Shown one piece after another: positions 3,763-64,000 of a stretch of 64,000 bases of DNA. Every line of letters begins with the position of its first letter. Position 1 is the stretch's first letter. The stretch is taken from the NCBI GenBank assembly GCA_030765505.1, contig JAVCCL010000001.1, forward strand, positions 12,306 to 76,305, read 5' to 3'. The DNA comes from Candidatus Kaelpia imicola (GTDB taxonomy: Bacteria; Omnitrophota; Gorgyraeia; Kaelpiales; Kaelpiaceae). The notes below the pieces were generated by a model. The model was not told where the DNA came from. It saw only the letters and a program-made list of their open reading frames with translations, and did not search any database. A program made the position numbers and the translations under genes.

Positions 3763-5212
3763 AGATGATATCCTGCCTTTACTAATAATTGTAGCTGCAG
3801 GACTGATTGTCTATATAGGTATTTTAGATGCCCCCTTTATCTATGATGATATCCACCTTGTATTAAACAATGAGCTGATAACCTCTTTTAAGTATATCCC
3901 CGAGCTTTTTAAGACTATATTCAATTCTGATATCTTGAGATTACCTTTTAGGCCCTTGCAGATTATCTCCTATATGTTTGACTATAAGCTCTGGACTTTT
4001 GACCCTAGAGGCTACCATCTTATCAACGTCTTACTTCACGTATTTAATAGCTTGCTATTATACGGTTTAAGTCTACGATTCTTCAAAAGAAGAAAAGAGG
4101 CTTTCTTAATAGCACTTCTGTTTGTAATTCATCCTCTCAATACTGGTGCGGTAAGCTATATATCTGGTAGAGCCGATCTATTAGCAGGATATTTCTCTTT
4201 TCTATCTCTGATCTTATTTTTCAGGTTCTTGGATAGTCATAAGAATATTGCTCTTATTTTAAGCATGCTGTCTTTTGTAGCTGCAATCTTATCTAAAGAG
4301 ATAGCTTTGATAGTACCTCTATTACTTTTGACCTATGTAGTTATCTTCTATCGCCCTTCTTTGCGTTATCTTATTTGCCATCTGGTTATTGCTGCTATTT
4401 ACATGCTGTTGAGATTGCCGGGTTTTCTAGCCGCTACTTTTTTTAAGCCTACGTTAAGCGGAAGATTTTTAACTGCACCCTATCTATTTTTTAGATATTT
4501 AAAAATAATATTTTTTCCTCACAACCTTAGGCTGTCCTATGCTATCAGTTATATAGATTCACCCAAAGACCCTGCATTTATTCTATACTTTATATTGCTC
4601 TCTTTAGTCGTCTGCCTTGGACTCTATTCAATTAGAAAGAGCAAGAGAATGGTATTTTTCTCTATATGGTATATCCTGAACTTTCTGCTTATATCCGGGG
4701 TAGTAGTTGCATTGAATGCTCCTTGTGCCGAGCATTGGCTCTATCTGGGATTGCCTGCAATATTTGCTTTAATGGTATCGTTAATATATAGTCTCTTTTA
4801 CAGGGGAGCAGTATATAGGTATGCCGGTTATATCTTTATAACAGGTATGCTTATATACTATGGATTTTCAACTCTAGAGCGCAATAAAGAGTGGGGGACT
4901 CCTGAAGATTTTTATAAGAACGAGATTGAACATACCCCGTCTAATTACAAAGCTCATTATAATCTGGGCATAATATATTTTAATGAAGGAAGATATCTGG
5001 ATGCCGAAGAAGAGTTCAAAAAAACTATTACGATATTTCCTGAACTTCACCTGGCCTATTATGGCCTTGCTTTAACTGCTGAAGAGAGAGGAGATATGGA
5101 TGAGGCCATCAGCTGCTATTGTAAGAGCTTGGATATAGCTCCGGAATTTGATCTGGGAAGAGAGAGACTCAAAATTTTAAAAGGGAGCTATCTTGGTGAT
5201 GTTAAAAAATAG
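3740..5212 (+). CDS. TMTC-like GT-C glycosyltransferase (DUF1736 + TPR), paralog 2
   Basis: FIYDDIHLVLNNELI (a DD loop motif), FRPLQIISYMFDY, INVLLHVFNSLLLY and SGRADLL are present. The C-terminus has TPR repeats (AHYNLGIIYFNEGRYLDAEEEF...). Confidence 0.75.
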   Translation: MRVLMLNRDDILPLLIIVAAGLIVYIGILDAPFIYDDIHLVLNNELITSFKYIPELFKTIFNSDILRLPFRPLQIISYMFDYKLWTFDPRGYHLINVLLHVFNSLLLYGLSLRFFKRRKEAFLIALLFVIHPLNTGAVSYISGRADLLAGYFSFLSLILFFRFLDSHKNIALILSMLSFVAAILSKEIALIVPLLLLTYVVIFYRPSLRYLICHLVIAAIYMLLRLPGFLAATFFKPTLSGRFLTAPYLFFRYLKIIFFPHNLRLSYAISYIDSPKDPAFILYFILLSLVVCLGLYSIRKSKRMVFFSIWYILNFLLISGVVVALNAPCAEHWLYLGLPAIFALMVSLIYSLFYRGAVYRYAGYIFITGMLIYYGFSTLERNKEWGTPEDFYKNEIEHTPSNYKAHYNLGIIYFNEGRYLDAEEEFKKTITIFPELHLAYYGLALTAEERGDMDEAISCYCKSLDIAPEFDLGRERLKILKGSYLGDVKK

Positions 5213-55405: not shown

Positions 55406-55547
55406 TTCTTATATTTACAATATGTACAATAATATAAACTAAACTATTATATACCTTTATTTTATTTCTTCAAAATGTAAAATGTATATAAGGCTATGTT
55501 GCTTGAAATAATTTCTTTTATCTGGTATAAGGATAGAACCCTAATAT

Positions 55548-55623
55548 CGGGGTGTGGCTCAGCTTGGTTTAGAGCGCCTGGTTTGGGACCAGGAGGTCGG
55601 GAGTTCGAATCTCCCCACCCCGA
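55548..55623 (+). tRNA. tRNA-Pro (UGG)
   Basis: Hand-folded: acceptor CGGGGTG/CACCCCG, D arm GCTC..GAGC, anticodon stem CCTGG/CCAGG with loop TTTGGGA, and T arm GGGAG-TTCGAAT-CTCCC. Confidence 0.85.
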
Positions 55624-55662
55624 TTGCAATATTATAGAATAGAGCTACAATATGTTAAATAT

Positions 55663-55850
55663 GCGCCTGTAGCTCAATCGGATAGAGCATCTGCCTTCTA
55701 AGCCGAACCAGCCCATTTCCCTAACCCTTTGATTTAACTGTAAATGTATTATCTATCAAGTAATTGTCCCAAAATCCAAAGTACACTGAAGTACATTGAC
55801 GTACATCTAAATTGTCCCCAGATTGTCCCCCAAGGAGAGGCTATGATGTA
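55663..55850 (+). repeat. Direct repeat copy 1 (~190 bp), beginning with a 5' half of a tRNA-Arg(UCU)-like sequence (acceptor, D arm, anticodon arm) and lacking the T arm
   Basis: GCGCCTGTAGCTCAATCGGATAGAGCATCTGCCTTCTAAGC... followed by internal GTACA(T/C)TGA and ATTGTCCCCA sub-repeats. It is ~90% identical to copy 2. Confidence 0.7.
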
Positions 55851-56011
55851 TGCCATAAGTAATAAGATTTTGTCGTAGTTACTAAATAAGGAGCTGGCGA
55901 AGGTTGATTGGGTAAGTGTATTAATAATTGTTTAAGCAACGTTTATACTTGTAGCTTTAGTGATCCAAGCCTATCCATAACTAGAGAATCTGTTATTTTT
56001 TAATTTTGTTA

Positions 56012-56038
56012 TTGACAACTATAAATTAGGTGTATAAT
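56012..56038 (+). promoter_or_regulatory. Sigma70-like promoter upstream of the 56068 ORF (TTGACA, 15-nt spacer, TATAAT)
   Basis: TTGACA at 56012-56017 and TATAAT at 56033-56038. Confidence 0.3.
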
Positions 56039-56067
56039 TACGCATTAAATTTAACTTATACTTAAAT

Positions 56068-56709
56068 ATGTCAAAATTTAGTTTTATAGGGTGTATTGAA
56101 ATTAAAGAATTGCTTGGTAAGAGAGCAGGGGATGAATTAAAGCTGCTTGAATACATCGAGGAAGTCTCTCTAGATTGCATATATTATCATACTCATAGTT
56201 ATTTTTTAAGGCATTATTATCTTGCAGGATCTTATCCCAATGATTTTGCTAATTGGGTTGCAATTCAAGTAAGAGATAGAGTTTTAGGTGAAAAACTGGC
56301 CTCCGTAACCCCCCATGGATTTAAAAGCTTAGAAGATGTAAGAGCAGAGTTAATAGAGATTATAGATAGGCATTTATCTTCAATTGAAATAATACCCCGA
56401 GTTGTATATGGTGAATCTTTTTATTTTATGAAGTCTAGAATAATTGAAATTCCCATAGGTGTTGAAGTGAATAATTTTGAAGAGTTTAAAGGTGTTTTAA
56501 AAACAGTAGATGCAAGTTCCATTTATTACCATATTTTTGAGTCAAGATTGAGAAATAAAAAAGGTAGTAGTGATTTTGCAATCTGGCTTAAAGATGAGTT
56601 AGGTCTAAATGTGCTCGCTGAACAGATTGAATTATTAGATTGTTATATGTATAGTTTGGAAGATCTAAGATCTAAATTGATAGATTTATGCAATCAAGTC
56701 GAAGAATAG
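56068..56709 (+). CDS. Hypothetical protein (213 aa), coupled to the downstream TreT-like gene
   Basis: Intact ORF with no motif I recognise. It ends 3 nt before the GT4 gene start. Confidence 0.5.
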   Translation: MSKFSFIGCIEIKELLGKRAGDELKLLEYIEEVSLDCIYYHTHSYFLRHYYLAGSYPNDFANWVAIQVRDRVLGEKLASVTPHGFKSLEDVRAELIEIIDRHLSSIEIIPRVVYGESFYFMKSRIIEIPIGVEVNNFEEFKGVLKTVDASSIYYHIFESRLRNKKGSSDFAIWLKDELGLNVLAEQIELLDCYMYSLEDLRSKLIDLCNQVEE

Positions 56710-56712
56710 ATT

Positions 56713-57924
56713 ATGAATGATAAATTGACAATTGAATTATATAAAGATATAGCTCCAGCCGGTACGGTTGATTTAATTAAGAGGCTTGTAGAAAAATTAC
56801 AAGGTAAGTCTGTTTTACATGTTAATTCTACTCGTTTAGGTGGTGGTGTAGCTGAAATGTTATTGAGGCTTGTACCTATGTTTAATGAGCTTGGAGTAAA
56901 ATCTAATTGGGATGTGGTAAAAGGTTCAGACCTTTTTTATAAAACAACGAAATGTTTTCATAATGCTCTGCAGGGAGATGAGCAGAATATAACTGCAGAT
57001 ATGTATGAAGAATATCTAAGAGTCAACAGGGAGAATGCAGATAATATGAATTTTAATGATGATATAATTGTAATACACGATCCTCAACCAGCAGCGTTTA
57101 TAAAAAATAGAAACAATAGTTCGAAATGGATATGGAGATGTCATATAGACATATCAAGGCCACAGAGAAAAGTATGGCAATTTTTAAAAGAGTTTGTAAA
57201 TAGTTATGATGCAGCTATATTCTCTTTACCCAAGTTTGCACAGAATATTAATATTCCGCAGTTTTTGATATATCCATCAATAGATCCGTTAAGTGATAAA
57301 AATAAAGAGATTTCTCGTAAGGAGATTAATCAGGTATTAAAAAAATTCAACATTCCTATGGATAAGCCCATTATTTTACAGGTATCGCGGTTTGATAAAT
57401 TTAAAGATCCTATAGGAGTTATTAAGGCGTACCAAATGGTTAAAAAATTTAATGATTGCTACCTTATTCTTGCTGGCGGAGGGGCTAGCGATGACCCTGA
57501 AGGTCAAGAGGTTTTGAATAGAGTGTACGAGGAAGCATCTCATGACAAAGACATATATGTTCTGGATTTACCACCAGATGCAAATATAGAAATAAATGCA
57601 TTGCAACGGTCTGCCTCTGTAGTATTGCAAAAATCTACAAAGGAGGGATTTGGCTTAACTGTTGCCGAAGCTATGTGGAAAGGAAAACCTGTTATAGGAG
57701 GCGCTGTAGGTGGTATTGCAACTCAAATAGTTTACGGGATAACTGGATTTACTGTTAATTCCATAGAAGGTTGTGCTTATAGGATACGTTATCTTTTAAA
57801 CAACCCTGTGATTGCCAAAAAAATAGGTAAAGATGCTAAAGAGTATACAAGGAGAAATTTTTTAATAACAAGACATATGTTGGATTATATAGCTCTTATG
57901 TACTCTGTTTTGAACGGAAAATAA
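56713..57924 (+). CDS. GT4 retaining glycosyltransferase, TreT-like (trehalose glycosyltransferring synthase family)
   Basis: VLHVNSTRLGGGVAEML..LVP, TTKCFHNALQG, HDPQPAAF, WIWRCHIDIS and EGFGLTVAEAMWKGKPVIGG are collinear with archaeal/bacterial TreT as I recall it. Confidence 0.7.
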   Translation: MNDKLTIELYKDIAPAGTVDLIKRLVEKLQGKSVLHVNSTRLGGGVAEMLLRLVPMFNELGVKSNWDVVKGSDLFYKTTKCFHNALQGDEQNITADMYEEYLRVNRENADNMNFNDDIIVIHDPQPAAFIKNRNNSSKWIWRCHIDISRPQRKVWQFLKEFVNSYDAAIFSLPKFAQNINIPQFLIYPSIDPLSDKNKEISRKEINQVLKKFNIPMDKPIILQVSRFDKFKDPIGVIKAYQMVKKFNDCYLILAGGGASDDPEGQEVLNRVYEEASHDKDIYVLDLPPDANIEINALQRSASVVLQKSTKEGFGLTVAEAMWKGKPVIGGAVGGIATQIVYGITGFTVNSIEGCAYRIRYLLNNPVIAKKIGKDAKEYTRRNFLITRHMLDYIALMYSVLNGK

Positions 57925-58130
57925 AGAATGAGTGAAGAAATAAAGAAAGCCCAAGCAAGATAGGGGAGAGCGTAAAAAGTGGCTAGGAGTATGAGTGTTA
58001 TTATTGGAGTTCCGTGCCTCCGGTAAGCCTAACAATTTTCTCCAATTTTCGTCTACTGTAAGGTAGTTTCAGTTTTAATTTAAAAGTATAAGATTGAAAT
58101 TCCCTTTTCTTTATGTTATTAAATTACAAT

Positions 58131-58326
58131 GCGCCTGTAGCTCAATCGGACAGAGCATCTGCCTTCTAAGCAGAACCAGCCCAATTCCCTAACTCATTGA
58201 TTTAACTGTAAATGTATTATCTATCAAACAATTATCCTAAAATCCAAAGTACACTGAAGTACATTGACGTACATCTACGTACATTTAAATTGTCCCCATA
58301 TTGTCCCCAGGGTAGAGGGTGGTGTA
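58131..58326 (+). repeat. Direct repeat copy 2 (~190 bp), beginning with a 5' half of a tRNA-Arg(UCU)-like sequence
   Basis: GCGCCTGTAGCTCAATCGGACAGAGCATCTGCCTTCTAAGCAGAACC... Here the anticodon stem pairs properly (TCTGC/GCAGA). The same internal sub-repeats occur as in copy 1. Confidence 0.7.
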
Positions 58327-58499
58327 CTTGCTAAAGCTTTGCTCTAACAATAATTCAGAGTAACAGTTCAGCTATCAAAAGTAACTCATCCCTTTTAATA
58401 TAGCACTATATCTTTAAACCCTCCTTTTGCCACTCTGTAATAGCTCCGTAATAGTGCTTGACAGAGCCTATCTTTTAGACTATAATCTGATATGTTGAT

Positions 58500-58832
58500 A
58501 TGATATCAGATAAGGTAAAGCTTATGGATGAAAAGAAGATACTTAAAGAACGCCGTAAGATATATGGTCAAATGCCCATGGTTGAGGAGTCTATCCGCGG
58601 TTCATTAGTTGTAATGAGAAGAACCTGCGGGAAAGCTAATTGCCGCTGTCAAAAGGGCCAAAAACACAGAGCAATGTACTTATCTCAAAGTCACAACGGT
58701 AAGACACGCATGATATATATCCCGAAGAACATGGAAAAGAGGGTGGATCAGTATATTAAGAATTACCAAAAGATAAAAAGTGTTTTGAACCGCTTATCAG
58801 ATATTAATATAAAATTGCTTACCAAAAGGTAA
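58500..58832 (+). CDS. Hypothetical small protein inside the IS66-like element (Cys-rich CGKANCRCQKG)
   Basis: 110-aa ORF immediately upstream of the transposase. It is not similar to the canonical IS66 TnpB. Confidence 0.4.
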   Translation: MISDKVKLMDEKKILKERRKIYGQMPMVEESIRGSLVVMRRTCGKANCRCQKGQKHRAMYLSQSHNGKTRMIYIPKNMEKRVDQYIKNYQKIKSVLNRLSDINIKLLTKR

Positions 58833-58838
58833 TAGAGG

Positions 58839-60077
58839 ATGAGTAAAAAGAATCTTTACAAAAGGCTCTTAGAACTTGAAGAAGAGAATAAAAGACTAAA
58901 AGAAGAGAATGCATATCTAAGATTTGAATTGGAAGAGTTCAAATCCAAAAGATACAAATCCAATAAGGAAAAACCGCCTGACCATGGAGGACCCAAACTT
59001 CAGCCTAAGAAAAAAGGCGGTTTGTTTGGTCATATAGGCTGGTTCAGGAAGAAGCCTCAAAGAATAGATAGAATCGAAGAAGTAAAGATAGATAAGTGTC
59101 CAGAGTGCGGTTCTATTGAGATAACAGAATGTAAAGCTATAGAAGAACACCTACAGGAAGATATTCTGATACCTATAGTCCAGGCAACACTTTACCGTAA
59201 ACACAAATATTACTGCAGGAATTGTAAGAAAATAGTCGTCGGTAAAGGCAGAGCTGAACTCCCTAAAAGCTATATAGGCCCAACAGCAAAGTCATGGGCA
59301 GTCTTTTTGAAATACGCAGTCAAGGTATCTGATAGAGATATTAAAAATATATTCCAGAAGATGTTCAATTTAAGAATAGCAGACTCTTCTTTATCGGGTT
59401 TTAGAGACCAGCTGAAACGAGAGGCGTTTCCGATATATAAGAAGCTGCAGAAGGCATTGAAACAAGGCAGCTTTATACACGCCGATGAGACAGGCTGGAA
59501 GGTAGAAGGAGAGAAGCACTGGCTCTGGAAGTTCTCCAATAAAAAGATATCTCTAACTCACATAGACAGAAGCCGCGGACAGAAGGTTGTTGAGGATATT
59601 GTAGGCAGGGAATATGACGGCATAATAATATCGGATTTTTTATCTGCATATAATAAGATTGCTGCTAAAGGGAAACAACGCTGTCTTGTTCATATCTTAA
59701 GAGATTTGAAGAAAGTAATCGAGTATTGGCATGACGATAAAGAGGTTCTAAGATACTGCAGGAGGCTTAAGAAGGTATTTGAAGATGCCATAAAATTATA
59801 CGAAGAATACAGAGATAGAGAATGGGATCAGGATTACTATCGAAAAAGGATCTTGATCACCCAAAGGTTGAAAGACTTCTGCTTCCCAAATCCCAACAAA
59901 AGAATATTGCAGAGATTTGTTAAAAGGCTTAATCGCCATAAAGATGAACTGTTTACCTTCTTATATGAAAAAGATATAGATTATCATAATAATCATGCCG
60001 AACAGCAGATAAGGCCTGATGTGATGAGCGACAATTATAATTACCGGCCAACGACAATTGAAATTCCCGAAAAATAG
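58839..60077 (+). pseudogene. IS66-family transposase (TnpC-like), truncated by the IS21 insertion near codon 395
   Basis: N-terminal leucine zipper, a CPECG..C..YCRNCKK zinc finger, and IHADETGWKV (the IS66 DETxxxV motif). It ends NNHAEQQIRPDV, and the frame then runs into IS21 sequence. Confidence 0.8.
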
Positions 60078-60121
60078 GCTGGAGATGGTAATCTATTTAG
60101 ACTAAAGATAAGGAGGTCTAA

Positions 60122-61612
60122 ATGGTTACCGATCAACAGGTAAGGAGGTTGTTGTTACTCATGAAAAGCGAAAGAACTAAAGCAATAGCAGCGGCTAAGG
60201 CTGGCATGGACGAAAAGACTGCTCGAAAATACGTAAGAATAGGCAAACTGCCTAGTGAAATCGGGAAGAATCATAACTGGCAAACACGTCAAGATTCGTT
60301 TGAGGCAGACTGGAAGCAAATAAAGGAACTTCTAAAAGCTAATCCCGGCTTGGAAGCTAAAACAATCTTTGAGTATTTACAGCGAGAGAAGATAGGCGAA
60401 TATCAAGATGGCCAGTTACGAACGCTTCAACGCAGAGTAAAATACTGGCGGGCCACTGAAGGACCGGCCAAAGAAGTATTTTTCCCTCAGGTACACCGAC
60501 CGGGAGAATTATCAGAGTCTGATTTTACACATATGGAAAAATTAGGGATAACTATTCAAAGAGAACTGTTTGAGCATTTACTTTACCATTTTGTATTAAC
60601 CTATTCAAATTGGGAAACTGGTACAGTATGTTTTTCCGAAAGTTTTGAAAGCTTATCTGCTGGATACCAAAACGCGGTTTGGGAATTAGGCGGAGCAACT
60701 AAAAAACATCGTACTGACCGAATGAGTTCAGCGGTAAATAAAGACTGTAATCCGGAGAAATTTACCAAAAGGTATAAATCTTTGTTACGTCATTATAGAG
60801 TTGAGCCTGAACGTACTAATCCTGCCCGGGCTAATGAAAACGGCGATGTAGAACAGCGGCATTACCGGTTTAAAAAAGCCGTAAGTCAGGCATTAATGTT
60901 ACGCGGCAGCCGTGATTTTAATTCACGACAGGAATATAAACAATTCCTGCGTAGAATATTTGAGCAGCTGAATGCCGGACGGCAAAAGAGATTAGAAGAA
61001 GAACTCACTGTGCTGCGGCGTCTTCCTGCAAGGAAATTAGATGACTATAAGCCTTTGGAGGTTACAGTAAGCCCTTCAAGCACCATTCATGTCCAACATA
61101 ACACCTATTCTGTCCATAGCCGGTTGATCGGCGAAAGAGTTATAGTTAAAATTTATGTGGATTATTTGGAAGTCTGGTATGCTCAGCGTAAGGTAGAACA
61201 TATCCCCCGCCTGCGGGGAGAAGGCAAATACCGTATATACTACCGGCATATCATAGATTGGCTGGTACGCAAACCGGGAGCGTTTGAAAACTATCGTTAT
61301 AAGTCAGAAATGTTCCCTTCGAGCTATTTTAGGATGGCATACGATTATTTGAAGCGTGAGAATCCTCTTAGAGCCAATAAAGAATATGTAGCTGTACTTT
61401 ATATGGCTCATAAAGAAGGAGAAACCCGTACAGAGTCAGCTATACGGCATCTTTTATCTCAAGAACAGCCTCTCTCAGCTGAAAACATGCGGCAGGCAGT
61501 AATTAGAGAGAATAAAATACCTCTGGTTACTGACATAGTCATAGACGATGTCTCTCTAAAAATTTACGATGAACTTTTAAACATTAGAGAGGAGGTAACT
61601 GTTTATGGATAA
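60122..61612 (+). CDS. istA: IS21-family transposase IstA
   Basis: N-terminal HTH followed by a DDE integrase core. The typical 8-nt overlap with istB is present. Confidence 0.85.
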   Translation: MVTDQQVRRLLLLMKSERTKAIAAAKAGMDEKTARKYVRIGKLPSEIGKNHNWQTRQDSFEADWKQIKELLKANPGLEAKTIFEYLQREKIGEYQDGQLRTLQRRVKYWRATEGPAKEVFFPQVHRPGELSESDFTHMEKLGITIQRELFEHLLYHFVLTYSNWETGTVCFSESFESLSAGYQNAVWELGGATKKHRTDRMSSAVNKDCNPEKFTKRYKSLLRHYRVEPERTNPARANENGDVEQRHYRFKKAVSQALMLRGSRDFNSRQEYKQFLRRIFEQLNAGRQKRLEEELTVLRRLPARKLDDYKPLEVTVSPSSTIHVQHNTYSVHSRLIGERVIVKIYVDYLEVWYAQRKVEHIPRLRGEGKYRIYYRHIIDWLVRKPGAFENYRYKSEMFPSSYFRMAYDYLKRENPLRANKEYVAVLYMAHKEGETRTESAIRHLLSQEQPLSAENMRQAVIRENKIPLVTDIVIDDVSLKIYDELLNIREEVTVYG

Positions 61613-62369
61613 AAGCACACAATCCCGGTTACACGGTTATTTAGACGAGTTACGTTTGACCACAACTCGGAAACGTTATTCTGATATCGCTCAGAAGGCA
61701 CGTAAAGATATCTGGGGATATGAAGAATATCTGTTAAGCGTAGTTCAAGAGGAAAGCGAAACCAGAAGAGCTAAGCGTATAGAACGTCTATTACGCCAAT
61801 CCGGCTTGCCTCTTGAGAAAAGTTTAGACACCTTTGAACTAAAACGCCTGCCAAATAAGGTCAGACAGCAGCTAAATGTACTTCTGGAAGGCAGATTCCT
61901 TGACTATAGCGAAAACATTCTGATATTTGGCAATCCCGGCAGTGGAAAAACTCATTTAATTTGTGCTGTAGGCCAAGAGCTTATTCGGCAGGATAAACGA
62001 GTTTATTTTATTACTTGTGCCCTGCTGTTACAGGAATTGCTGGCAGCTAAACGTGATTTGAAACTGCCGAAGCTATTTAAAAAACTAAACCATTATCACG
62101 CTATTATTATTGACGATATCGGTTATGTACATCAGGCTAAAGAAGAAATGGAAGTATTATTTACGCTTTTGGCCCAACGCTATGAGCAAGGCAGCGTTAT
62201 GATTACCAGCAATCTGCCTTTTTCCAAATGGGAAAAAATATTCAAGGACCCTGTAATGACTGCTGCGGCTATTGACCGTATCGTGCATCATAGCATTATC
62301 CTTGAACTCAATATACCGAGTTATCGTATGGCTATGGCTAAAAACCGGAAAATTCAAGAAAGGAGGTAA
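61605..62369 (+). CDS. istB: IS21-family helper ATPase IstB
   Basis: Walker A GNPGSGKTHL. Walker B IIIDDIGYV. DnaC-like. Confidence 0.9.
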   Translation: MDKSTQSRLHGYLDELRLTTTRKRYSDIAQKARKDIWGYEEYLLSVVQEESETRRAKRIERLLRQSGLPLEKSLDTFELKRLPNKVRQQLNVLLEGRFLDYSENILIFGNPGSGKTHLICAVGQELIRQDKRVYFITCALLLQELLAAKRDLKLPKLFKKLNHYHAIIIDDIGYVHQAKEEMEVLFTLLAQRYEQGSVMITSNLPFSKWEKIFKDPVMTAAAIDRIVHHSIILELNIPSYRMAMAKNRKIQERR

Positions 62370-62445
62370 TTTTTTTTAACTCAGGCATCGGGAAAAATAA
62401 TTGTCGTTGAAGGGAAAAAATAGTTGACGTCCATCACTGATGTGA

Positions 62446-62717
62446 TATTTAGAAAGATCACATTCCAGAATAGGTCATGCAGAGGAGCAGAAAACCACAG
62501 TATCCTCATGAGCATACTGCAGACAGCAAAATTGAACGGATTAGACCCCATAAAAACTTTTGAGAAAATATTGCTCTGCACTGACAAGCTGTCTATCTTA
62601 AAACCTGCCTTTGAAAAACTGACGCCTGCTTACCATGATATTTCAATACTGCAGAAGGTATTTTCACTACCGCCTAAGACCAAAGATATGCAGTTAACTA
62701 CAGCAGCCCCTCCTTAA
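62446..62717 (+). pseudogene. C-terminal fragment of the interrupted IS66-family transposase
   Basis: ...IFRKITFQNRSCRGAENHSILMSILQTAKLNGLDP is the IS66 C-terminal signature. When the IS21 element is removed in silico, it is in frame with the upstream fragment, giving IRPDVIFRKITFQN. Confidence 0.75.
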
Positions 62718-62892
62718 ACATTATCATTATTTTTGTAATTTAGGTTAAACCAGGATAAGATTGCTTCCCCCGAAACTTTGGAGCTGCAAAGAGAGCTGAG
62801 TTATTCTCTGCGGATAGCTGAACTGTTACAATTCAGATGTTATTTTTGTACTCAGTTTGTAAAATAGTTTAATAAGTGGTATAAATATAGAT

Positions 62893-64000
62893 ATGAAGAT
62901 AAGAGGTAAAAATTTTATATTGCTATTATATGTGATGCCACTGTTTCTATTTATTTCTTTTATAAGCTCTACGCTTGAAGCAAGTTTTGTTCCTCAAGGA
63001 AATAAAAAGCCATTTGGGAAAATTGATTCAATTTTTATTCCAAACTCCAATCAAAACAATTTGTCCTATCCCAATTCTGTGGAATCAGAAGATGCTGATA
63101 ACGCCCTGCAAGGTTCATCCACAATGGTTTCTGACATATGGATAAACAGCCTGCAGATCGAAGCCCTGAAACATTTGGATATAATGATTAGTGATTTTCA
63201 ACCAGTCAATGAACGAATTGATTCTGCATTAAGACTTGTAGAATTGTTGAATCAAGATTTGTTGGAATATTCTTTAAATTTTACTTCTGAAAATGGAAAA
63301 AATATTATTTTAGGTCTCAGAAATTTTTGTATTGATAACACAACAAATGAAGAGCTTATTGAAAAAATTCCTATTGCATTAGAAAATATATTCCTCACAA
63401 CACAGTATGAAGATATAGCTAAATTTGCAAACGATAGCTTGCTATATATGCAAAAAGAAGGCGTCGAGCTTTCTCAGTTTTTTGCTTTTGAAGCTTCTGA
63501 GTTTGCAAGGCCTTTGTTTACGGAAAGTGACAAAGGAATTTTACCAGAAATATCTAATTTGATATCAGGAGATAATATAAAACTTCATACAGAAGTCATC
63601 CAAGACATAAGAACCGTCGACAGTAATATTCCATCATTACAATCTGACATCAGCGATCAATATGAAAATACAATTGATTATTTATGGGAGTATCTAAGCG
63701 ATTTAGGCATCGATGTAAAATTAGACCTTGCTCTATATGTAAATAACATCTTTGGAGAAATTTCTCCGCCTTTTGAGAATATAGTAGCTGTTATTCCAGG
63801 AGAAACTTATCCGGAGAAAAAAATAGTTATCTGCGCCCATTATGATTCTATAAATCATTCAGATGGAGGTATAGCCCCTGGGGCAAATGATAATGCCAGT
63901 GGTGTAGCAATAGCATTGGAAGTAATACGTGCTTTAAAAGATTCTAAAATTTTATTGGATTATACGGTTGAAATTGTTTTATTTGATGCTGAGGAAATAG
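62893..64000 (+). CDS. Secreted M28-family peptidase (3' end beyond the window)
   Basis: I translated it by hand from ATG 62893. It has a signal peptide, and the frame is open to the window end. The motifs are ICAHYDSINHSDGGIAPGANDNASGVAIALE and ...VLFDAEE. It is missing from the track because no stop codon lies in the window. Confidence 0.65.
   Translation, partial: MKIRGKNFILLLYVMPLFLFISFISSTLEASFVPQGNKKPFGKIDSIFIPNSNQNNLSYPNSVESEDADNALQGSSTMVSDIWINSLQIEALKHLDIMISDFQPVNERIDSALRLVELLNQDLLEYSLNFTSENGKNIILGLRNFCIDNTTNEELIEKIPIALENIFLTTQYEDIAKFANDSLLYMQKEGVELSQFFAFEASEFARPLFTESDKGILPEISNLISGDNIKLHTEVIQDIRTVDSNIPSLQSDISDQYENTIDYLWEYLSDLGIDVKLDLALYVNNIFGEISPPFENIVAVIPGETYPEKKIVICAHYDSINHSDGGIAPGANDNASGVAIALEVIRALKDSKILLDYTVEIVLFDAEEI

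Follow-up and report, generated by a model that had tools for sequence, protein, structure and literature searches.

Candidate tandem array of small integrase-less cassettes in the tRNA-Arg(UCU) gene of Candidatus Kaelpia imicola

A 64,000-nt stretch of the Candidatus (Ca.) Kaelpia imicola genome (hereafter the window) carries, just downstream of an intact tRNA-Pro gene, two direct repeats that both begin with the 5' part of a tRNA-Arg(UCU) gene. With a probability of about 0.75, we consider this locus to be a tandem array of small integrative cassettes, devoid of integrase gene and inserted in reversed orientation in the chromosomal tRNA-Arg(UCU) gene. Copy 1 of the repeat reads as an attL-type junction (att, attachment site), where the native 5' part of the gene is followed by the arm of an element, and copy 2 as a P-O-P'-type junction, where the right end of a first cassette is joined to the arm of a second one. 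At the level of sequence comparison, it can be regarded as demonstrated that integration took place at the boundary of the anticodon stem, that it displaced the native 5' part, that the gene was rebuilt with a 5' part brought by the element, and that the arrangement is in tandem.

The repeat pair and its tRNA-Arg(UCU) 5' parts

The repeats (direct-repeat family D1) were found at 55661-55809 and 58129-58277, with 94% identity and a spacing of 2468 bp. A gapped alignment lengthened them to about 55838 and 58318, i.e. ~190 bp each, and revealed a sole indel of 10 bp, which corresponds to one additional GTACAT unit in copy 2. They are as reported in a preliminary description of the stretch, which had noticed ~190-bp repeats, 2.47 kb apart, beginning with a 5' half of tRNA-Arg(UCU). 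Both copies open with GCGCCTGTAGCTCAATCGGA, a sequence that occurs exactly twice in the window and was absent from 100 shuffled versions of it. When aligned to the Rfam tRNA model, both copies correspond to a tRNA minus 20 positions, those of the variable loop and T arm; their scores, 27.8 bits for copy 2 and 20.3 bits for copy 1, are below the gathering score of 29. Both have CTTCTAA as anticodon loop (anticodon UCU). The anticodon stem, preserved in copy 2 (TCTGC/GCAGA), is disrupted in copy 1 (GCCGA for GCAGA) by a substitution that had already been described. Alignment of the copies, which had been proposed as a means to define the core, gave tRNA positions 1-44 as the shared tRNA part. 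Each copy can be divided into this 44-nt tRNA-Arg(UCU) part and an arm of 130-150 nt in which the sub-repeats are phased, and the locus is laid out as follows:

55547-55624, + strand: intact tRNA-Pro(UGG) (ARAGORN; Rfam, 67.6 bits), which adjoins the site on its left, chromosomal side
55625-55662, + strand: native spacer 5' of tRNA-Arg, which aligns with the native spacers of relatives L010 and L021 and not with element-borne upstream sequences
55663-55706, + strand: copy 1, tRNA-Arg(UCU) 5' part (tRNA positions 1-44), taken to be the displaced native one
55707-55840, + strand: arm of copy 1 (P'-type arm of cassette 1; nhmmer arm profile, E = 2.4e-52)
58085-58130, + strand: right end of cassette 1, an element-borne promoter-like region that directly precedes the element-borne tRNA 5' part
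58131-58174, + strand: copy 2, element-borne tRNA-Arg(UCU) 5' part with intact anticodon stem
58175-58318, + strand: arm of copy 2 (P'-type arm of cassette 2; nhmmer, E = 3.8e-54)

The spacer that follows tRNA-Pro is 38 nt long, and not 40 nt as first stated. It includes a promoter-like sequence, TTGCAA-16-TACAAT (55624-55651; 9/12 match to the consensus), which may drive transcription of the gene. The 5' part of copy 1 spans the acceptor 5' strand, the D arm and the anticodon arm; when it is compared with the intact tRNA-Arg of L010 and L021, identity stops directly after the anticodon stem. Its arm has the ATTRYCCY motif at 55763, 55811 and 55822, and three GTACAYYNA units between 55781 and 55809. 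In copy 2, the 5' part is joined to another arm and not to a tRNA 3' part; ATTRYCCY is found there at 58231, 58289 and 58300, and the GTACAYYNA units, four in number, extend from 58249 to 58287. In both copies these units are in strict 10-bp phase. The repeat also contains, at fixed offsets, two copies of ATTGTCCCC plus a degenerate third one. The earlier observation of internal sub-repeats (GTACAYTGA three to four times and ATTGTCCCC twice) is therefore correct and can be extended by that third copy.

The sequence 5' of copy 2 has promoter-like features of its own, with TTGAAA at 58094-58099, a 17-nt spacer and TG-n-TATTAA at 58114-58122, and it ends 8 nt before the tRNA +1. From its sequence, this 45-nt region is a plausible extended -10 promoter; it was missed by the promoter consensus scan owing to the terminal A of its -10 hexamer.

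The only tRNA genes that ARAGORN and Rfam returned for the window were tRNA-Met (51112) and tRNA-Pro, and a search across the window for the T arm and 3'-acceptor remainder of tRNA-Arg gave no match. That no intact tRNA-Arg(UCU) is present in the window, as previously claimed, was thus borne out. Such a gene must nevertheless exist in the genome because AGA accounts for 57% of the arginine codons (12 window genes sampled).

The fold predicted for the 190-nt unit was no better than that of shuffled sequence (z = -0.30), which rules out that the unit as a whole is a structured RNA. More generally, one could imagine that the locus contains a functional RNA gene, either the 5' half of a split tRNA, of the kind known from Nanoarchaeum, or a regulatory RNA resembling a tRNA, in view of the tRNA-like character of the 5' part and of the promoter-like sequences upstream. 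Against it stand the fold value, the lack of a 3' half in the window, the truncated and sub-threshold matches to the Rfam tRNA model and the stem-breaking substitutions in the copies; moreover, the corresponding position is occupied in relatives by an ordinary intact gene, and Ca. Kaelpia aquatica has the fragment together with an intact gene (see below). We find this explanation hardly credible. A sub-threshold match to the Rfam YrlA (Y RNA-like) model was also obtained at 55578-55714 (25.4 bits for a gathering score of 69). It covers the end of tRNA-Pro and the tRNA-Arg 5' part, and the tRNA-like module contained in the model almost certainly accounts for this artefactual match.

Empty and occupied sites in relatives

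Comparison was made with the orthologous histidine kinase loci of relatives (loci and contigs are designated by L numbers). The order histidine kinase, tRNA-Pro, tRNA-Arg, tRNA-His is conserved, and an undisturbed tRNA-Pro, tRNA-Arg(UCU), tRNA-His cluster was found in five lineages (L010-L012, L019, L021, L023, L024). In L010-L012, L019 and L023, the tRNA-Pro, tRNA-Arg(tct) and tRNA-His genes are intact and 14-45 nt apart; in L021, the native tRNA-Arg continues into its T arm. In L024 the same three genes are intact, with a wider gap between tRNA-Pro and tRNA-Arg (294 nt) in which there is a degenerate extra 5' fragment. One locus, L022, is that of a paralogous kinase and is uninformative for the site. 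An empty site with an intact target gene, a hallmark of integrative elements, is therefore found in all of the five lineages, and this agrees with the initial proposal that a cassette had been captured at a tRNA locus.

The extra fragment of L024 (3700-3790, minus strand) is a degenerate tRNA-Arg 5' part (GTACCTGTAGCTCAAAAGAGATACCTGCC...), situated ~90 nt before the intact tRNA-Arg and preceded by a similar upstream sequence, ATTTGATATG. In this more distant relative, it may be the scar of an earlier insertion on the 5' side.

Occupied sites were found as well. In Ca. Kaelpia aquatica (L007; also L008, L009 and L013) the gene contains a complete insertion of 1.78 kb. Read in the orientation of the window, the left part of L007 consists of tRNA-Pro, a 40-nt native spacer, a mutated tRNA-Arg 5' part and an arm of the window type. 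The right part comprises two open reading frames (ORFs) of 82 and 183 aa (no Pfam match), 45 nt nearly identical to those that precede copy 2 in the window, an intact tRNA-Arg(UCU) detected by ARAGORN, and the tRNA-His region. Repeats of a segment of the target gene thus flank the insert, and one end has the regenerated gene; the window contains the two flanking copies, and the regenerated tRNA-Arg would lie outside. This complete insertion, with the same arm and a regenerated tRNA, backs the suggestion of the preliminary description that the repeats are an att-like site with arm-type sub-repeats. The same left junction exists in another genus: in Ca. Saelkia tenebricola (L020), a degenerate 5' part and an arm adjoin tRNA-Pro. 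Finally, L014 and L015, two independent contigs from metagenomes, contain P-O-P' junctions like that of copy 2, flanked on both sides by unrelated cargo.

In all six junctions, tRNA identity ends at an identical nucleotide position, immediately past the 3' strand of the anticodon stem (...CTTCTAAGCAGA / ACCAGCC, versus GGGTTGG in the native gene). On the other side, the 45 nt 5' of copy 2 match the sequence that precedes tRNA-Arg in K. aquatica and those that precede the 5' parts in L014 and L015, and they are unlike the native spacers; the sequence 5' of copy 1 aligns with that of the empty-site genomes. The two copies are consequently not equivalent, because the upstream sequence is the native spacer for copy 1 and that of element right ends for copy 2. 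The repetition of tRNA positions 1-44, together with an upstream 45-nt sequence which is conserved among elements and differs from native spacers, is what distinguishes insertion in reversed orientation. No motif shared by the four right ends was found 5' of the 45-nt region; L014 alone has two ATTGCCC-type sites there. In K. aquatica, we infer that the DNA which follows the arm varies within populations because three independent assemblies (L008, L009 and L013) stop exactly at the arm.

Other explanations of the repeat pair were tried. A plain tandem duplication was rejected since the sequences 5' of the two copies are unrelated and that of copy 2 matches element ends elsewhere. Transposon ends had to be considered, IS21 ends containing GACAATT, the complement of AATTGTC; they were discarded since the ends are in direct rather than inverted orientation and the 'duplication' consists of 44 nt of a tRNA. 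A T/C difference in the D-loop was dropped as a marker of native versus element-borne 5' parts, both K. aquatica copies having C and L014 having T.

A few observations concern the surroundings of the tRNA cluster. In K. aquatica, no tRNA-His was detected by ARAGORN after tRNA-Arg, while relatives have an intact gene: comparison of L007 2340-2385 (minus strand) with L010 9600-9675 indicates that tRNA-His is cut in its anticodon loop (...GACTGTGGC / GAAGTGACCCC...). It is either a second remnant limited to a 5' part, and possibly another reversed-orientation insertion, or the product of a ~370-bp deletion. Besides, a conserved block resembling a promoter and 5' untranslated region (CCAATTTGACTA...TATAAAGAGGGGAATTGGTACAAAATATG) is found at about 3890-3950, 2250-2310 and 1080-1110 in L007 and at about 9205-9270 in L010. 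It precedes several genes for small signal-peptide proteins near the tRNA cluster, some of which have HExxH-like motifs.

Conserved arms, the recombinase question and the cassette model

Over 125 nt, the arm is 84-96% identical among all six copies. The identity is 88-90% between K. imicola and Saelkia, to be compared with ~66% for the adjacent kinase gene at the nucleotide level and with a non-tRNA intergenic flank that cannot be aligned. Taken individually, the arm of window copy 1 is 84-95% identical to those of K. aquatica, L014, L015 and Saelkia. The layout of the motifs is constant, with ATTRYCCY at +101, +159 and +170 and four GTRYAYYBR units from +119 to +149; the exceptions are K. imicola copy 1 and Saelkia, where one unit is missing. 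Arm variants do not track species: window copy 1 goes with L014 and L015, and window copy 2 with K. aquatica.

With the arm profile, exactly 2 copies were returned for the window, and the loci compared had none outside tRNA positions. In the window, the unit is thus not a high-copy dispersed repeat; had it been one, unrelated to tRNA, the proposal of the preliminary description would have been refuted by its own terms. The metagenome scan returned three short contigs only. Scans with the junction and arm patterns gave no match in a collection of species-representative genomes (without either Kaelpia genome), and neither the junction nor the right end was matched in viral contigs. When the unit was compared by BLAST with phage and plasmid collections, only its tRNA part was matched, at ordinary tRNA genes.

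These data bear on an origin without recombinase, in which RecA-type Campbell integration through the 44-nt tRNA segment would have been followed by unequal crossing-over between the ~240-bp repeats. Campbell integration through 44 bp of identity would give a product of the same appearance; once there are two units, 190-240 bp at 92-95% identity suffices for homologous exchange; and no integrase was found in the window. However, 44 bp is a poor substrate for homologous recombination, and the nucleotide at which similarity to the tRNA breaks off, identical in all six junctions, corresponds to a classical crossover sublocation of integrases. Furthermore, the phased motif architecture present in every arm copy, with a conservation far above background, indicates protein binding. 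Such an origin is in our opinion very improbable.

What the recombinase could be was approached in several ways. Comparison of two phage integrases with the window ORFs of at least 100 aa revealed no tyrosine-recombinase-like ORF (phmmer, best E = 0.3), a screen of limited sensitivity; this is in line with the view put forward initially that the integrase has been lost or is elsewhere. Pfam analysis of the cassette genes of the window and of L007 detected no integrase in either of the two complete cassettes (2.47 kb and 1.78 kb), so that a cognate tyrosine or serine recombinase is not among the genes of these elements, which sets them apart from autonomous integrative elements.

Parallels came from phages. 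A scan of viral contigs for ATTGTCCCCANATTGTCCCC yielded four contigs (L001, L002, L003 and L004) of very different G+C content. The shared feature is a doublet, (A)TTGTCCCC-N2-ATTGTCCCC, located at 1212-1231 and 1467-1486 in L001, at 5143-5162 and 5441-5462 in L004, at 1978-1997 in L003 and at 439-458 in L002. In L001 and L004, which are related phages, one doublet is ~300 nt 3' of the gene for a 338-aa tyrosine integrase and 60-80 nt from a tRNA 3' fragment, and a second doublet is ~200 nt beyond the opposite side of that fragment. In the high-G+C contig L003, a tyrosine integrase gene lies immediately ahead of the doublet, which comes straight after its stop codon; L002 has a tRNA 3' fragment 130 nt away from the doublet. 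These doublets conform to the classical arrangement of arm-type integrase-binding sites and, by analogy, they support the same function for the Kaelpia repeats. The tRNA fragments of L001 and L004 are different and oppositely oriented. Two other contigs have an iteron-like look: L006 (10700-11250) contains a long array of ~20-bp units (GTAGAACATGACGTACATTT-like), and L005 (9041-9079) a short run of GTACATTGAA units which resemble the GTACAY repeats of the arm.

From the above, the following model can be proposed. The attachment site of a cassette would consist of the promoter-like region of ~45 nt, the first 44 nt of the tRNA and an arm of 130-260 nt, the latter with four GTACAYYNA units spaced by 10 bp and with ATTGTCCCC in two or three copies, sub-repeats presumably of the protein-binding type. 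A tyrosine integrase encoded elsewhere, by a helper element or by the chromosome, would bind the arm repeats and move the cassettes in trans, with its core in the anticodon stem-loop. Recombination with the tRNA gene would occur at or just after this stem-loop, in the rare reversed orientation. As a consequence, the native 5' part would be displaced and would stay beside tRNA-Pro, fused to the arm and cargo of the cassette, while the promoter-like region and 5' part of the cassette would join the native 3' part to give a complete tRNA gene at the far end. The array of the window would thus comprise the displaced 5' part, cassette 1 with its DUF5752 and TreT genes, and cassette 2 with an M28 peptidase gene and a later IS66::IS21 invasion, which would extend beyond 64000 and end in an intact tRNA-Arg at its distal end. 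In a circle, a single insert or an array alike, every cargo would be preceded by a promoter, a 5' part and an arm.

Several points weigh against this cassette model. No recombinase linked to these sites was found in any contig examined, and the ends of the short contigs L014 and L015 do not overlap as those of a circle would. The window includes neither the intact tRNA-Arg nor the right end of cassette 2. The link made by the ATTGTCCCC doublet with phage att sites comes from four hits, which cannot show that the integrase family is shared; the match may only reflect the general richness of att arms in tandem 10-11-bp repeats. The genome being assembled from a metagenome, the ~240-bp repeat could in principle have led the assembler to chain two alternative cassettes. 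Lastly, K. imicola has shorter arms than K. aquatica, L015 and Saelkia, the displaced 5' parts are mutated and insertion sequences have invaded the locus, all of which is compatible with a decaying rather than an active array.

The last group of observations could also be accommodated if the cassettes were fossils, immobile remnants of larger integrase-encoding elements (prophages or integrative islands) that have lost their integrase and most genes by deletion, and hence similar to CIMEs (cis-mobilizable elements); the word cassette would then be too strong. Mutated displaced 5' parts, arms truncated relative to the other copies, IS66 and IS21 insertions and, in L024, the scar-like degenerate 5' fragment ~90 nt before the intact tRNA-Arg would all be expected; decay followed by accretion is besides the standard explanation of tandem structures (PMC5704250). 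On the other hand, both complete units (2.47 and 1.78 kb) lack an integrase and yet have both ends intact, and the five junction contexts are associated with five different cargos of one or two genes. The 84-96% identity of the arm across genera, versus ~66% for the kinase gene, is hard to square with long-dead DNA, and the three K. aquatica assemblies that break at the arm suggest variation at the population level. On balance, we hold fossils to be unlikely and prefer the model of small cassettes moved in trans.

Cargo genes and comparison with known systems

The remaining features of the locus are the cargo genes and two nested insertion sequences:

56003-57924, + strand: cargo module of cassette 1, with a DUF5752 gene (56068-56709) and a TreT-like GT4 gene (56713-57924)
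58360-62829, + strand: IS66-family insertion sequence inside cassette 2 (Pfam, inverted-repeat search and sequence)
60022-62436, + strand: IS21-family element nested in the IS66 transposase gene, with istA (60122-61612) and istB (61605-62369)
62893-64000, + strand: cargo of cassette 2, an M28-family metallopeptidase gene (Pfam Peptidase_M28) that runs past the end of the window

Cassette 1 measures 2468 bp from core to core. Its cargo has a promoter-like site of its own (TTGACA at 56012-56017, a 15-nt spacer and TATAAT at 56033-56038). The promoter-like site and the TreT-like GT4 gene between the repeats had been recognized from the start; the 213-aa ORF, then called unknown, is a Pfam DUF5752 member (E = 2.4e-62). 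The GT4 protein matches PF21269 TreT_GT1 (E = 7.6e-57) and PF00534 Glycos_transf_1 (E = 1.3e-22), and with a TreT N-terminal domain and a GT4 catalytic domain it has the domain composition predicted for a TreT-type trehalose synthase. Homologues of TreT are ~70% identical across phyla, and some sources label them trehalose synthase. The genome is that of an Omnitrophota from Ace Lake, Antarctica, a lake that also yielded the genomes of K. aquatica (GCA_030765335.1) and Saelkia (GCA_030765145.1), and trehalose is a compatible solute in bacteria of this lake (PMC8542988).

In cassette 2, the IS66 element has DUF6788 as its first ORF (58500-58832) and a transposase gene at 58839-60077 that resumes at 62424-62717. 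It is bounded by 17-bp perfect terminal inverted repeats and by an 8-bp target duplication, AATTCAGA, at 58352-58359 and 62830-62837. The IS21 element is flanked by a 6-bp target duplication, CTGATG, at 60016-60021 and 62437-62442, and both duplications are still intact. The full M28 peptidase product is 492 aa long; at E <= 1e-20, the database search returned nothing but this K. imicola protein, and its region is not syntenic with the DNA that follows tRNA-His in relatives. Every cargo gene seen in Kaelpia cassettes is co-directional with the tRNA.

The DUF5752-TreT module, its promoter-like site included, has a counterpart with 84% nucleotide identity in L016 (9291-11212), the TreT proteins being 88% identical. 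This copy, in L016/L017, is without the 190-bp unit. The situation is literally one which the preliminary description had seen as damaging to its proposal, namely the same cassette in related genomes without the repeats. It does not make the repeats meaningless, since the pair is found there at the end of a conventional tRNA-integrated element that is different from the Kaelpia cassettes. The cargo is thus exchangeable between two types of mobile elements, because the same module sits in both. In these related metagenome contigs (L016 5537-11212; L017 1380-1460), DUF5752-TreT is a terminal cargo, together with D5_N/DUF5906 primase-helicase, HTH_3 and S26 peptidase genes, and the L016 element terminates in a tRNA 3' fragment (GTCGCTGGTTCGAATCCAGCCACCGCCA), ahead of PilZ and a tilS-like gene.

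The Omnitrophota are uncultured and gene exchange among them is almost undescribed. The tRNA-Pro/Arg/His cluster, adjacent to a conserved two-component system, is a hotspot that can be compared across genomes, and accessory genes (a trehalose synthase module, genes for secreted proteins, a peptidase) enter it as very small units. If the model is correct, annotators should be aware that an essential tRNA can be reconstituted from foreign DNA and that half-tRNA fragments mark cassette boundaries. What is new here is that three known features, seldom combined, come together in a further phylum and in units of very small size: integration at a tRNA 5' part with a promoter-like region supplied by the element, complete units without recombinase, and tandem arrays.

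Each of these features has precedents. Elements of the IMEX type (integrative mobile elements exploiting Xer), such as CTX-phi, have no recombinase of their own and use the host XerCD at dif, where they form tandem arrays at a single site; the Kaelpia target is a tRNA gene and not dif, and no Xer-type 28-bp site is evident. The reversed-orientation tRNA elements of Zhao and Williams (2002, J Bacteriol 184:859) reportedly encode their own integrase and are large. They share with the Kaelpia cassettes a 5'-distal tRNA target, a 5' segment carried by the element, of necessity with expression signals upstream of it, a displaced native 5' part and a regenerated gene; the complete Kaelpia units differ from them by their size, 1.8-2.5 kb, and by the lack of integrase. 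Although documented, recombination that involves the 5'-distal part of tRNA genes is much rarer than that with the 3' part, and elements with a tyrosine recombinase build arrays by re-using one site (PMC6563490, where Zhao and Williams and further archaeal examples are cited).

The name CIME designates elements that lack an integrase and have kept both att sites (Pavlovic 2004 and Bellanger 2011, reviewed in PMC5704250). Like them, the Kaelpia cassettes have no integration or transfer genes, keep both att sites (55663-58174 for cassette 1; the K. aquatica insert) and occur in tandem with other elements at one tRNA gene; for CIMEs, the integrase of a neighbour could in principle ensure movement (PMC5704250). 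CIMEs have been described in Firmicutes, at target-gene 3' ends, and their origin is ascribed to the decay of integrative and conjugative, or integrative and mobilizable, elements (PMC5704250). The Kaelpia cassettes depart from this by their reversed orientation, by their units of one or two genes and by having no known parental element with an integrase. In the tycheposon islands of Prochlorococcus, successive insertions are separated only by partial tRNA copies (bioRxiv 10.1101/2020.12.28.424599). There, as in Kaelpia, niche-adaptation cargo is found at specific tRNA genes, where partial tRNAs and degenerate remnants accumulate; tycheposons, however, have a tyrosine (rarely serine) recombinase and usually a replication module, whereas the Kaelpia cassettes have neither and belong to another host phylum.

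The Kaelpia locus is not an integron, having no IntI, no attI and no folded attC; its sites are tRNA-derived, direct and ~240 bp long with the arm, and do not fold better than shuffled sequence (z = -0.30). The likeness is one of analogy only: small, co-oriented cassettes without recombinase, each bounded by a recombination site, gathered at one chromosomal position and preceded by promoter-like sequences so located as to read into them. If the cassettes are actively moved in trans, they would form a cassette-capture system analogous to integrons and built on different parts. Tentatively, and at odds clearly below even, one may go further and suppose that the Ace Lake Omnitrophota have an integron-like cassette platform on a tRNA gene, where recombinase-less cassettes of one or two genes, each with a tRNA promoter, the tRNA 5' part and a protein-binding arm, would be inserted, excised and shuffled by a single trans-acting recombinase. 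Whatever the configuration, a tRNA promoter would precede each cargo, and the essential tRNA-Arg(UCU) would always be regenerated where the array ends. It would then be a second, independent solution to the capture and expression of cassettes, distinct from that of integrons and common to several genera.

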